NCBI RefSeq assembly: GCF_988243305.1
Contig: NZ_OZ547136.1
DNA length: 64,000 bases
Strand: one strand, 5' to 3'
Position 1 is the stretch's first letter, and every line of letters starts with the position of its first letter. This document shows, piece after piece, positions 13,535 to 16,876 of the stretch. A program made the translations under genes and the position numbers. The notes under the pieces are model-generated. The model was not told the DNA's origin and did not search any database. It was given only the letters and a program-made list of their open reading frames with translations.

Positions 13535-14353
13535 ATGCGACTAGCCAGTCGTTTTGGTTATGCGAACCAGATACGCCGTGACCGTCCGCTGACACACGAA
13601 GAACTGATGCACTATGTGCCGGGGATTTTCGGGGAAGATAAACACACGTCCCGAAGCCAGAACTATACGTACATCCCCACCATCACCGTACTGGAAAGCC
13701 TGCAGCGGGAAGGCTTTCAGCCATTCTTCGCCTGCCAGACCCGTGTGCGCGACCCGGGCCGCCGGGGATACACAAAACACATGCTGCGTCTGCGGCGGGC
13801 CGGAGAGATAAACGGAGAACATGTCCCTGAAATTATTCTGCTCAACTCTCATGACGGTACCTCCAGCTACCAGATGCTGCCGGGGTACTTCAGGTTCGTC
13901 TGCCAGAACGGCTGCGTCTGTGGTCAGTCTCTGGGGGAAGTACGTGTTCCGCACCGGGGAAATGTGGTGGACAGAGTCATTGAAGGGGCTTACGAGGTGG
14001 TGGGCGTGTTTGACCGGATAGAGGAGAAGCGTGATGCCATGCAGTCGCTGGTCCTGCCGCCACCGGCACGCCAGGCGCTGGCACAGGCGGCGCTGACTTA
14101 CCGTTATGGTGACGAACATCAGCCCGTCACCACCGCCGACATTCTGACACCACGACGCCGGGAGGATTACGGTAAGGACCTGTGGAGTGCTTATCAGACC
14201 ATCCAGGAGAATATGCTGAAAGGCGGGATTTCCGGGCGCAGTGCCAGAGGAAAACGTATCCATACCCGGGCCATTCACAGCATTGATACCGACATTAAGC
14301 TCAACCGCGCATTGTGGGTGATGGCAGAAACGATGCTGGAGAGCCTGCGCTGA
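13535..14353 (+). CDS. DUF932-family protein (YfjQ/YafZ-like)
   Basis: 272-aa product MRLASRFGYANQIRRDRPLTHEELMHYVPGIFGEDKHTSRSQNYTYIPT... is typical of YafZ/YfjQ. Confidence 0.8.
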   Translation: MRLASRFGYANQIRRDRPLTHEELMHYVPGIFGEDKHTSRSQNYTYIPTITVLESLQREGFQPFFACQTRVRDPGRRGYTKHMLRLRRAGEINGEHVPEIILLNSHDGTSSYQMLPGYFRFVCQNGCVCGQSLGEVRVPHRGNVVDRVIEGAYEVVGVFDRIEEKRDAMQSLVLPPPARQALAQAALTYRYGDEHQPVTTADILTPRRREDYGKDLWSAYQTIQENMLKGGISGRSARGKRIHTRAIHSIDTDIKLNRALWVMAETMLESLR

Positions 14354-14434
14354 TGCCGTTTCCCTGAGTGAGGGAATCATTCAGCTTTCGTTCCTGAAAA
14401 ACACACATTTATTTGTTATTTAAGGAGTTATCTC

Positions 14435-14914
14435 ATGAAGACCGTTTCTCAGAATACCCCCACAATTTATTCAGCTACAACACCAGAGAATAATCCGCCT
14501 CAGTTGGTTGCCAGCCTCGTCCCTGATGAACAGCGCATCAGCTTCTGGCCGCAGCATTTTGGCCTCATTCCACAGTGGGTGACCCTGGAGCCCCGTGTTT
14601 TCGGCTGGATGGACCGTCTGTGCGAAGACTACTGCGGGGGTATCTGGAATCTGTACACTCTGAACAACGGCGGGGCATTTATGGCCCCCGAACCGGATGA
14701 CGATGATGACGAAACATGGGTACTGTTCAATGCCATGAACGGCAACCGCGCTGAAATGAGCCCGGAAGCCGCCGGCATTGCTGCCTGTCTGATGACGTAC
14801 AGTCATCACGCCTGTCGTACGGAGTGTTATGCCATGACGGTCCACTATTACCGTCTGCGGGATTACGCCCTGCAGCATCCGGAATGCAGCGCCATTATGC
14901 GCATCATCGACTGA
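14435..14914 (+). CDS. antirestriction protein (ArdB/KlcA-like; YfjX/YafX family)
   Basis: 159-aa product with acidic stretch PEPDDDDDETW and the conserved YfjX-type C-terminus. Confidence 0.8.
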   Translation: MKTVSQNTPTIYSATTPENNPPQLVASLVPDEQRISFWPQHFGLIPQWVTLEPRVFGWMDRLCEDYCGGIWNLYTLNNGGAFMAPEPDDDDDETWVLFNAMNGNRAEMSPEAAGIAACLMTYSHHACRTECYAMTVHYYRLRDYALQHPECSAIMRIID

Positions 14915-14929
14915 ATGGAGGCAGGGACA

Positions 14930-15406
14930 ATGCAGCAGCTTTCCTTTCTGCCCGGAGAAATGACGCCCGGCGAGCGCAGTCTCATTCTGCGGGCTCTGAA
15001 AACCCTGGACCGCCATCTTCATGAACCCGGTGTGGCCTTCACCTCCACCCGTGCGGCACGGGAATGGCTGATTCTGAACATGGCGGGACTGGAGCGTGAA
15101 GAGTTCCGGGTGCTGTATCTGAATAACCAGAATCAGTTGATTGCCGGTGAAACCCTCTTCACCGGCACCATCAACCGCACGGAAGTCCATCCCCGGGAAG
15201 TGATTAAACGCGCCCTGTACCACAATGCCGCTGCCGTGGTGCTGGCGCACAATCACCCGTCCGGTGAAGTCACACCCAGTAAGGCAGACCGGCTTATCAC
15301 CGAACGTCTGGTACAGGCACTGGGTCTGGTGGATATCCGGGTGCCGGACCATCTGATAGTCGGTGGCAACCAGGTTTTCTCCTTTGCCGAACATGGTCTG
15401 CTTTAA
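14930..15406 (+). CDS. yeeS: RadC-like JAB/MPN-domain protein
   Basis: JAMM motif region HNHPSGEVTPSKADRLITERL; GGAGG SD upstream of MQQLSFLPGEM. Confidence 0.8.
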   Translation: MQQLSFLPGEMTPGERSLILRALKTLDRHLHEPGVAFTSTRAAREWLILNMAGLEREEFRVLYLNNQNQLIAGETLFTGTINRTEVHPREVIKRALYHNAAAVVLAHNHPSGEVTPSKADRLITERLVQALGLVDIRVPDHLIVGGNQVFSFAEHGLL

Positions 15407-15468
15407 CCCGTCACAACCACATCACACCTGTTTTCACTTTTATCTTCTGTCTTCAGAGGTATCCCATT

Positions 15469-15690
15469 ATGAAAATTATCACCCGTGGTGAAGCCATGCG
15501 TATTCACCAACAACATCCGACATCCCGTCTTTTCCCGTTCTGTACCGGCAAATACCGCTGGCACGGCAGCACTGAAGCGTATACCGGTCGTGAAGTGCAG
15601 GATATTCCCGGTGTGCTGGCCGTGTTTGCTGAACGTCGTAAGGACAGTTTTGGCCCGTATGTCCGGCTGATGAGCGTCACCCTGAACTGA
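15469..15690 (+). CDS. yeeT: DUF987-family protein YeeT
   Basis: 73-aa product MKIITRGEAMRIHQQHPTSRLFPFCTGKYRWHGSTEAYTGREV... Confidence 0.8.
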   Translation: MKIITRGEAMRIHQQHPTSRLFPFCTGKYRWHGSTEAYTGREVQDIPGVLAVFAERRKDSFGPYVRLMSVTLN

Positions 15691-15852
15691 TGTTCCGTCA
15701 CCCGGAAAACGAGTACGACTGGCTGAGCTCAGACGCCGCTGTGGATGAGGCCCTGCTCATAAACGAATACACCTTTACCGAAGGCGGTCTGCGCGCCGGC
15801 TGACCTGTCATCGTTAAACCATTCTTAACCGATTTTCTGTGAGGATTTTATC

Positions 15853-16221
15853 GTGTCAGACGCACTCTCCGGGATAACTCATCCCGACGACAATCACGAC
15901 CGCCCCTGGTGGGGGCTTCCCTGCACAGTGAGGCCCTGTTTCGGGGCACGTCTGGTGCAGGAGGGTAACCGCCTGCATTACCTTGCCGACCGCGCCGGTA
16001 TCAGAGGCCTGTTCAGCGATGCAGATGCGTACCACCTGGACCAGGCCTTTCCGCTGCTGATGAAACAACTGGAACTCATGCTCACCAGCGGTGAACTGAA
16101 TCCCCGCCATCAGCATACCGTCACGCTGTATGCAAAAGGTCTGACCTGCAAAGCTGACACTCTCGGTAGCGGTGGTTACGTTTATCTGGCTGTTTATCCG
16201 ACGCCCGAAACGAAAAAGTAA
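15853..16221 (+). CDS. cbeA: CbeA (YeeU) type IV antitoxin, cytoskeleton bundling-enhancing factor
   Basis: 122-aa product ...[41 protein letters not shown]... matches CbeA. Confidence 0.85.
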
Positions 16222-16310
16222 ACCACCGGAATAACCTTCTGCTCCGGCCTGGTGCTTTCACCACGCCACTTTTCCATTTTTCATCTCTGCATATCAGGAA
16301 AACCTTCAGT

Positions 16311-16685
16311 ATGAAAACATTACCCGATACACACGTACGGGAGGCATCGAGCTGCCCGTCTCCCGTCACCATCTGGCAGACTCTGCTCTCCCGACTACTG
16401 GGCCAGCATTACGGCCTTACACTGAATGACACACCGTTCGCCGATGAACGTGTGATTGAGCAGCATATTGAGGCAGGCATTTCACTGTGTGATGCGGTGA
16501 ACTTTCTCGTGGAAAAATACGCGCTGGTGCGTACCGACCAGCCGGGATTCAGCGCCTGTACCCGCTCTCAGTTAATAAACAGTATTGATATCCTCCGGGC
16601 ACGCCGGGCAACCGGCCTGATGACCCGCGACAATTACAGAACGGTAAATAACATTACCCTGGGTAAGTATCCGGAGGCGAAATGA
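16311..16685 (+). CDS. cbtA: CbtA (YeeV) type IV toxin (inhibits FtsZ/MreB polymerisation)
   Basis: 124-aa product [57 protein letters not shown]... matches CbtA. Confidence 0.85.
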
Positions 16686-16876
16686 TGACACTGGAAGCCG
16701 ACAGCGTTAACGTACAGGCGCTGGATATGGGGCACATTGTCGTTGACATTGATGGTGTTAATATCACTGAACTGATTAATAAGGCCGCTGAAAACGGTTA
16801 TTCACTCCGCGTGGTGGATGACCGTGACTCTACCGAAACACCGGCAACTTATGCCAGCCCTCACCAGTTGCTGTAA
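16682..16876 (+). CDS. yeeW: YeeW-family small protein
   Basis: 64-aa ORF overlapping the cbtA stop by 4 bp; position and sequence as for yeeW. Confidence 0.7.

Follow-up and report, generated by a model that had tools for sequence, protein, structure and literature searches.

We analyse a block of seven successive open reading frames (ORFs) on the + strand, from 13535 to 16876 of a 64,000-nt stretch of DNA (NCBI RefSeq GCF_988243305.1, contig NZ_OZ547136.1), which we call the window and whose positions are used throughout. The block encodes a DUF932 protein, an ArdB-type antirestriction protein, a RadC-like protein, YeeT, the antitoxin CbeA, the toxin CbtA and YeeW. With a probability of roughly 90%, these are the accessory (cargo-distal) genes of CP4-44, a P4-like cryptic island of E. 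coli, present as a mosaic of alleles, in partial decay, and with functions inferred from homologues. The module itself is known and near-ubiquitous in E. coli, and all of its proteins are already public. What is new is descriptive: the undeleted form of CP4-44, three truncated or fragmented genes together with one that is lacking, the allele mosaic, and a CbtA with cysteine at residue 15. The value of these points lies mainly in correct annotation, and the window shows a form of CP4-44 never seen in studies of K-12, one with DUF932 and ArdB genes and with a YeeR-like protein of 840 rather than 510 amino acids (aa).

Assignment to a K-12 island

Alignment with the K-12 paralogues, which the initial annotation of this DNA had proposed as a way to fix the paralogue group, gives a clear assignment to the cbtA/cbeA group of CP4-44. 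In global protein alignments against three K-12 sets, those of CP4-44, CP4-6 and CP4-57, the proteins of the block are 92-100% identical to the CP4-44 set, as against 58-82% for the other two (Table 1). The ArdB protein is 68-69% identical to K-12 YafX and YfjX/LfgA.

Table 1. Protein identity of the block to the paralogous sets of three K-12 islands
Protein	CP4-44	CP4-6	CP4-57
RadC-like	YeeS 99.3% over 148 aa	YkfG 82%	YfjY 72%
YeeT	YeeT 98.6%	YkfH 66%	YpjJ 58%
CbeA	CbeA 91.8%	YafW 59%	YfjZ 62%
CbtA	CbtA 91.9%	YkfI 58%	YpjF 63%
YeeW	YeeW 100%	none	none

The blastn blocks are collinear with K-12 2064000-2084000, with flu upstream and yoeF, tmaR/yeeX and yeeA downstream. The K-12 genes yeeP, isrC, flu and yeeR align with window 5956-11596 at 99.3% identity, and cbeA through yeeA with window 15818-18783 at 97.6%; for window 20060-24021, identity to K-12 reaches 99.95%. 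The block therefore sits between flu, the gene for antigen 43 (Ag43), and tmaR/yeeA, which is the usual location of CP4-44; the K-12 boundary of that island maps to about 17490. We also checked for an alternative locus, and for a closer kinship to ykfI/yafW or ypjF/yfjZ, and found neither. Because the proteins are most similar to those of K-12 CP4-44 and the flanks are collinear, we conclude that the block is the CP4-44 (cbeA/cbtA) orthologue at the normal K-12 CP4-44 locus.

The block is more complete in the window than in K-12. K-12 is without the DNA of window 11597-14953, a 3,357-bp deletion that took IrmA, DUF905, DUF932, ArdB, the 5' end of radC and the C-terminal 333 codons of an 840-aa YeeR-like protein. 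The 'YeeR' of K-12 (510 aa) consists of the first ~507 codons of this 840-aa protein fused to the radC 5' region, and K-12 YeeS has been shortened by the same deletion to 148 aa. Other E. coli strains have the undeleted arrangement, matching in gene order and in the annotation of the NCBI Prokaryotic Genome Annotation Pipeline (PGAP). We conclude that the window represents the ancestral, undeleted form of CP4-44.

The 840-aa YeeR-like ORF, at 10070-12592 (+), has no match in Pfam or NCBIfam, and weak PADLOC matches to PDC-M09B (E=9e-6, 1.4e-4). It is followed by the IrmA gene at 12668-13123 (+), of the interleukin-receptor-mimic family (PF18673, 2e-37), and by the DUF905 gene at 13202-13435 (+), directly upstream of the block; both are absent from K-12 CP4-44.

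Gene content and partial decay

The positions of the seven ORFs in the initial annotation agree with the ORF listing, and its gene identities were all correct: each of the seven proteins aligns over essentially the entire profile of its Pfam family, far beyond chance (Table 2). An NCBIfam scan returned matches restricted to RadC and to a EutP fragment near the right edge of the island. The module is present once in the window. Its genes are as tightly spaced as had been claimed, and the 4-bp overlap of cbtA and yeeW is real (ATGA at 16682-16685, with the ATG at 16682-16684 and the TGA at 16683-16685). Shine-Dalgarno sequences lie 5' of the gene starts, and they are good for the six full-length ORFs. 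The RadC-like gene probably starts at 14930 rather than at 14915, because a GGAGG lies 7 nt upstream, PGAP gives the 158-aa form in related genomes, and the exact 158-aa protein is found on at least 1000 contigs.

Table 2. Features of the block and of its degraded parts
Feature	Position	Strand	Product and best family match
DUF932 protein	13535-14353	+	272 aa, full length; Pfam DUF932 3.9e-52
ArdB-type antirestriction protein	14435-14914	+	159 aa; Pfam PF03230 Antirestrict 2.4e-37, 1-92/92
RadC-like JAB protein, YeeS orthologue	14930-15406	+	158 aa; Pfam PF04002 8.3e-45
RadC-like protein, mechanical ORF	14915-15406	+	163 aa
YeeT, DUF987	15469-15690	+	73 aa; Pfam PF06174 7.5e-39, 1-65/65
Remnant of 213-215-aa gene	15690-15803	+	37-codon ORF; ATG overlaps yeeT stop (TGATG)
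CbeA (YeeU) type IV antitoxin	15853-16221	+	122 aa, GTG start; Pfam PF06154 CbeA_antitoxin 1.9e-52
CbtA (YeeV) toxin	16311-16685	+	124 aa; Pfam PF06755 CbtA_toxin 1.4e-62, 1-112/112
YeeW	16682-16876	+	64 aa; Pfam DUF5983_N 2e-29, no other domain
Degraded DUF957 gene	16905-17002	+	in frame with yeeW, past the yeeW stop codon

According to the initial annotation, the conserved right-hand module of CP4-type islands is present in full and its reading frames are intact. The second part of this description applies to the six larger genes, in which neither frameshifts nor premature stops were found, but not to the module as a whole, and the first part is not supported. This becomes apparent from fuller islands in the E. 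coli strains E300010, MRY15-117 and MEI148-20EC, whose order of DUF932, antirestriction, JAB, DUF987, YeeU-family antitoxin and CbtA-family toxin genes is that of the window, at 88-91% DNA identity. These islands encode a two-domain DUF5983 protein of 162-163 aa, an intact DUF957 protein of 65 aa, and a DUF4942 protein (280 aa; an internal stop is marked in E300010). In E300010, yeeT is separated from the antitoxin gene by an intact 213-aa gene, whereas MRY15-117 and MEI148-20EC share the short 162-nt spacer of the window. The window's counterparts of the 213-aa and DUF5983 genes are truncated, that of DUF957 is fragmented, and DUF4942 is absent, with zero tblastn matches within the window. 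The block has thus partly decayed: three of its genes are truncated or fragmented, and a fourth is missing.

The spacer between yeeT and cbeA exceeds that of K-12 by 89 nt and holds a 37-codon ORF. Residues 177-213 of the 213-aa protein of E300010 match 15690-15800 at 76% identity (tblastn), a stub of 111 nt, and the 5' 547 bp of the gene is deleted immediately after yeeT; a related full-length protein has 215 aa. We had considered the 37-codon ORF as a novel coupled small gene, a candidate that was rejected once the ORF was seen to be the C-terminal remnant of this known 213-215-aa gene. The 213-215-aa protein has no Pfam or NCBIfam match, its sole match being a PHROG of unknown function. The spacer DNA is present in 3704 of the 5426 E. 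coli genomes, and in some of them it lies under an annotated 642-bp gene.

At the other end, YeeW comprises residues 5-64 of the 162-aa two-domain DUF5983 proteins, followed by an unrelated tail of 17 residues. Close homologues of YeeW are mostly 64-68 aa long, and the notion that it is a protein of normal length was dropped after the two-domain proteins had been seen in the fuller islands. Residues 36-65 of DUF957 match 16910-16999 (tblastn), blastn recovers two fragments of the gene, one of them of 23 nt, and the corresponding position in strains EM10-18-28 and B1-56 carries an 'incomplete DUF957' in the PGAP annotation. The truncated right end is common to K-12 and many other strains. We conclude that both the annotated intergenic spacer and the small gene yeeW are deletion remnants. 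As a lesser possibility, YeeW with its N-domain only and the translationally coupled 37-codon stub may be kept as functional small proteins. A public protein of 106 aa is the exact read-through of yeeW and DUF957 with Lys replacing the stop, so that some strains encode a YeeW-DUF957 fusion.

Distribution and mosaic of alleles

Of 5426 complete E. coli genomes, 4281 contain at least 80% of the block, usually in several copies; the copies total roughly 14,800, and genomes with any match have it in a median of 3 places. The exact sequences of all seven proteins are already public, each on between 631 (CbeA) and at least 1000 contigs. The best full-length match to the 3.6-kb block (13400-17000) among the complete genomes, however, is only 97.4% identical, and the profile of identity in 100-bp steps shows a patchwork of alleles, which is why no genome exceeds this value over the whole block. 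Compared with EM10-18-28, identity is 100% at 13000-14500 and at 16200-17400, but 85-93% around 14900 and through cbeA; compared with K-12 and B1-56, it is about 100% at 16500-17400 but falls to 76% where cbtA begins. Such a patchwork is as expected from recombination among several paralogous islands per genome, and the identity profile shows that the block is a mosaic, put together by recombination from alleles of the different paralogous islands in E. coli genomes. In keeping with this, several E. coli strains match the left part of the island (window 1-7000) at 99.9%.

The toxin and its antitoxin

CbeA and CbtA had been described as full length, and at 122 and 124 aa they have the lengths of their K-12 counterparts. 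CbtA aligns with the CbtA_toxin profile from end to end. CbeA is an antitoxin of the CbeA/YeeU fold (PDB 2H28, YeeU, E=7e-76), encoded directly upstream of the toxin on the same strand. No solved-structure relatives of CbtA, of the DUF932 protein or of YeeT were found in PDB.

Window and K-12 CbtA differ at 10 positions, all within residues 6-31, and R15->C is among them. In K-12 CbtA, the substitution F65S abolishes FtsZ binding, and R15C abolishes the interaction with MreB in a two-hybrid assay (Heller et al., PMC5624674). The determinant of FtsZ interaction, F65, is conserved in the window CbtA, but the K-12 determinant of MreB interaction, R15, is not present, residue 15 being Cys. The initial annotation's statement that the toxin targets FtsZ/MreB is extrapolated from K-12 CbtA, and its two halves fare differently: FtsZ targeting by the window protein may soundly be inferred, while MreB targeting is not established and must be called uncertain, because of Cys15. 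On the other hand, YkfI and YpjF naturally carry C15, C15R is without effect in either, and YpjF still binds MreB despite its C15 (PMC5624674), so R15 is a feature of the K-12 allele and not a requirement of the family. A Cys15 N-terminus occurs in all five non-K-12-type CbtA copies that we compared (the window and four further genomes, including E300010, MRY15-117 and MEI148-20EC). The widely cited statement that CbtA targets FtsZ and MreB rests on the R15 allele of K-12.

The window CbtA can be regarded as K-12 residues 32-124 joined to a widespread 'DTHVRE...C15' N-terminus. Because it carries the exact R15C substitution that abolishes MreB binding in K-12, it might conceivably act on FtsZ only, producing filaments rather than lemon-shaped cells. 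We consider this very doubtful; if true, it would mean that the exchange of alleles among paralogous islands re-tunes the cytoskeletal target of the toxin.

Residue 107 of the window CbeA is Gly, as against Cys in the nine homologues compared. We considered whether this residue betrays decay and rejected the idea, since the mutation is not private: the exact protein is found on 631 contigs.

The ArdB and RadC-like proteins

The ArdB/KlcA-like label of the antirestriction protein is borne out by a full-length match to PDB 2WJ9 (E=1e-101) and by a match to KlcA of IncP plasmids (2KMG, E=4.2e-21). The former structure was deposited as an 'intergenic-region protein', and we take it to be ArdB of E. 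coli CFT073. KlcA is plasmid-borne, whereas the window ArdB lies on a chromosomal island and its antirestriction activity is predicted from sequence.

The RadC-like protein matches PDB 2QLC (6e-26), and its JAMM motif, HNHPSGEVTPSKAD (H-x-H-P-x6-S-x2-D, metal-binding), is intact as read off the translation. For LfgB (YfjY), the RadC-like product of CP4-57, proteolysis of MqsA and protection against H2O2, acid and heat have been reported (PMC10846083). An earlier computational study proposed a nucleic-acid-processing role for the RadC domains of mobile elements (PMC5512222).

Transcription signals and proposed action

A terminator-like hairpin at 13457-13486 (+) follows the DUF905 gene, with a 13-pair stem, 7 GC pairs and a T-tract tail (TTTCATTTAT), and a second strong terminator-like hairpin lies at 13148-13176, 3' of the IrmA gene. 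These two hairpins upstream suggest that a new transcription unit starts at DUF932. Neither the yeeT-cbeA nor the cbeA-cbtA spacer contains a known RNA (Rfam, E<=1), and a search for direct and inverted repeats over 12500-17800 found short pairs only, at chance level.

From the homologues we propose the following action for the block. The genes from ardB through cbtA would be co-transcribed, as in the paralogous CP4-57 set yfjXY-ypjJ-yfjZF (lfgABCDE), which is one operon by experiment (PMC10846083). ArdB would blunt type I restriction of incoming island DNA. The RadC-like protein may be proteolytic, as is LfgB, its paralogue at 72% identity, or else process nucleic acid. Since it retains F65, CbtA would be expected to bind FtsZ and so block cell division; a further block of elongation, via MreB, is possible but uncertain given Cys at residue 15. 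In K-12, CbtA inhibits FtsZ and MreB directly, whereas CbeA acts indirectly and neutralises the toxin by making filament bundles more stable (PMC5624674); the window CbeA would likewise stabilise bundles of FtsZ/MreB and so counteract CbtA with no contact between the two proteins.

Several points weigh against this account. Expression of the block, like its roles, is putative. DUF932, ardB and cbeA all lack an upstream promoter in a scan for the sigma-70 consensus, although that scan is uninformative, with 3 promoter-like sites versus 4.8 expected from shuffled sequence. The palindrome by which MqsA controls the CP4-57 operon (ACCT N2-4 AGGT) is absent in and near the module; its 3 matches in the window all lie outside the module, at chance level. 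For a Cys15 CbtA and a Gly107 CbeA, it is by extrapolation from the K-12 pair that we predict toxicity, MreB targeting and neutralisation. The DUF932, DUF987 and YeeW proteins are without known function, and the activity of the RadC-like protein is disputed between proteolysis (PMC10846083) and nucleic-acid processing (PMC5512222).

Alternative explanations

It is possible, though we think it unlikely, that the block has become a domesticated stress-response module of the host, in which the RadC-like protease degrades a host regulator and the toxin-antitoxin pair tunes oxidative-stress tolerance or biofilm formation, the role in establishing or stabilising mobile DNA having been lost. Such a module would accord with the cleavage of MqsA and the protection against H2O2, acid and heat reported for the 72%-identical LfgB (PMC10846083), and with the lower oxidative-stress resistance of K-12 from which all three cbtA-family toxins have been removed (PMC5371832). 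Moreover, K-12 CP4-44 is without an integrase and unable to excise (PMC5371832), yet its proteins are kept at 92-100% identity. But the evidence from LfgB concerns a paralogue in a different island, the MqsA box is missing from the module, as noted above, and strong selection on the block as a whole is hard to square with genes that have decayed at either end of it.

Alternatively, the block might be a largely inert, decaying remnant, mostly silent, whose genes persist by toxin-antitoxin addiction or because too little time has elapsed. The three truncated or fragmented genes and the missing one are what such a remnant would display, as are the independent loss of 3.36 kb from the same block in K-12 and the failure to find consensus promoters. 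It is harder to reconcile with six full-length ORFs that have good Shine-Dalgarno sequences, with exact protein sequences that recur on 631 to at least 1000 contigs each, and with an intact JAMM motif and an intact F65 in CbtA; we judge it quite improbable.

Defence against phage is a frequent role of toxin-antitoxin systems, and cryptic islands are hotspots of defence, but that the block is an anti-phage locus in which CbtA/CbeA act by abortive infection is hardly credible, given that 0 of the 7 proteins match any PADLOC defence model at E<=0.01 and that the neighbours are of anti-defence type (ArdB) rather than defence genes.

Neighbouring features

The left part of the island (window 1-7000) encodes a YfjI-family protein, a full-length GTPase, which in K-12 is the pseudogene yeeP, and a helix-turn-helix regulator. 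The small RNA IsrC lies at 6612-6815 (+), upstream of flu as in K-12 (Rfam RF00124 IS102 RNA, 253 bits); it was the sole match of an Rfam scan over 5500-20500 at E<=1, and it falls outside the module.

On the right, a transposase-fragment region (yoeD in K-12) at about 17100-17300 precedes a yoeF-like ORF at 17317-17673 (+), whose 118-aa product matches only the C-terminal third of EutP/PduV (86-142/143). The ORF and the transposase fragment are remnants of the right edge of the island. Beyond them, yeeA, uninterrupted in K-12, is split by a 1,276-bp copy of IS621 at 18784-20059 (- strand). This element belongs to the IS110 family, and its recombinase, annotated as IS621 transposase, is a bridge-RNA-guided enzyme. 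The recombinase ORF occupies 18888-19868 (-), and its protein matches PDB 8WT6 (E=4e-220); the non-coding end, 19869-20059, which matches no Rfam family, would presumably encode the bridge RNA. Further away, a block at about 43000-54000 has a low G+C content (28-39%, versus about 50% elsewhere) and negative GC skew.

Comparison with known systems

The closest known system is yeeS-yeeT-cbeA-cbtA-yeeW (b2002-b2006) of K-12 CP4-44, which shares with the window its site, its gene order, the truncated yeeW, and the yoeD/yoeF remnants downstream. The two differ in the yeeT-cbeA spacer, which in K-12 is 73 nt long and without the stub of the 215-aa gene, as opposed to 162 nt in the window, and marginally in the cbeA-cbtA spacer (88 nt in K-12, 89 nt in the window). 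They differ as well in the toxin, since K-12 CbtA has R15 and a different segment at residues 6-31.

The paralogous sets of CP4-57 (yfjX-yfjY-ypjJ-yfjZ-ypjF, or lfgABCDE) and CP4-6 (yafX-ykfG-ykfH-yafW-ykfI) share the order antirestriction, RadC-JAB, DUF987, antitoxin, toxin, and each of these islands has a DUF932 gene too (yfjQ and yafZ, respectively). Their antitoxins of 105 aa and toxins of 109-113 aa, however, are shorter than the 122 and 124 aa of the window proteins, and antitoxin and toxin genes are separated by 20 nt, compared with 89 nt in the window.

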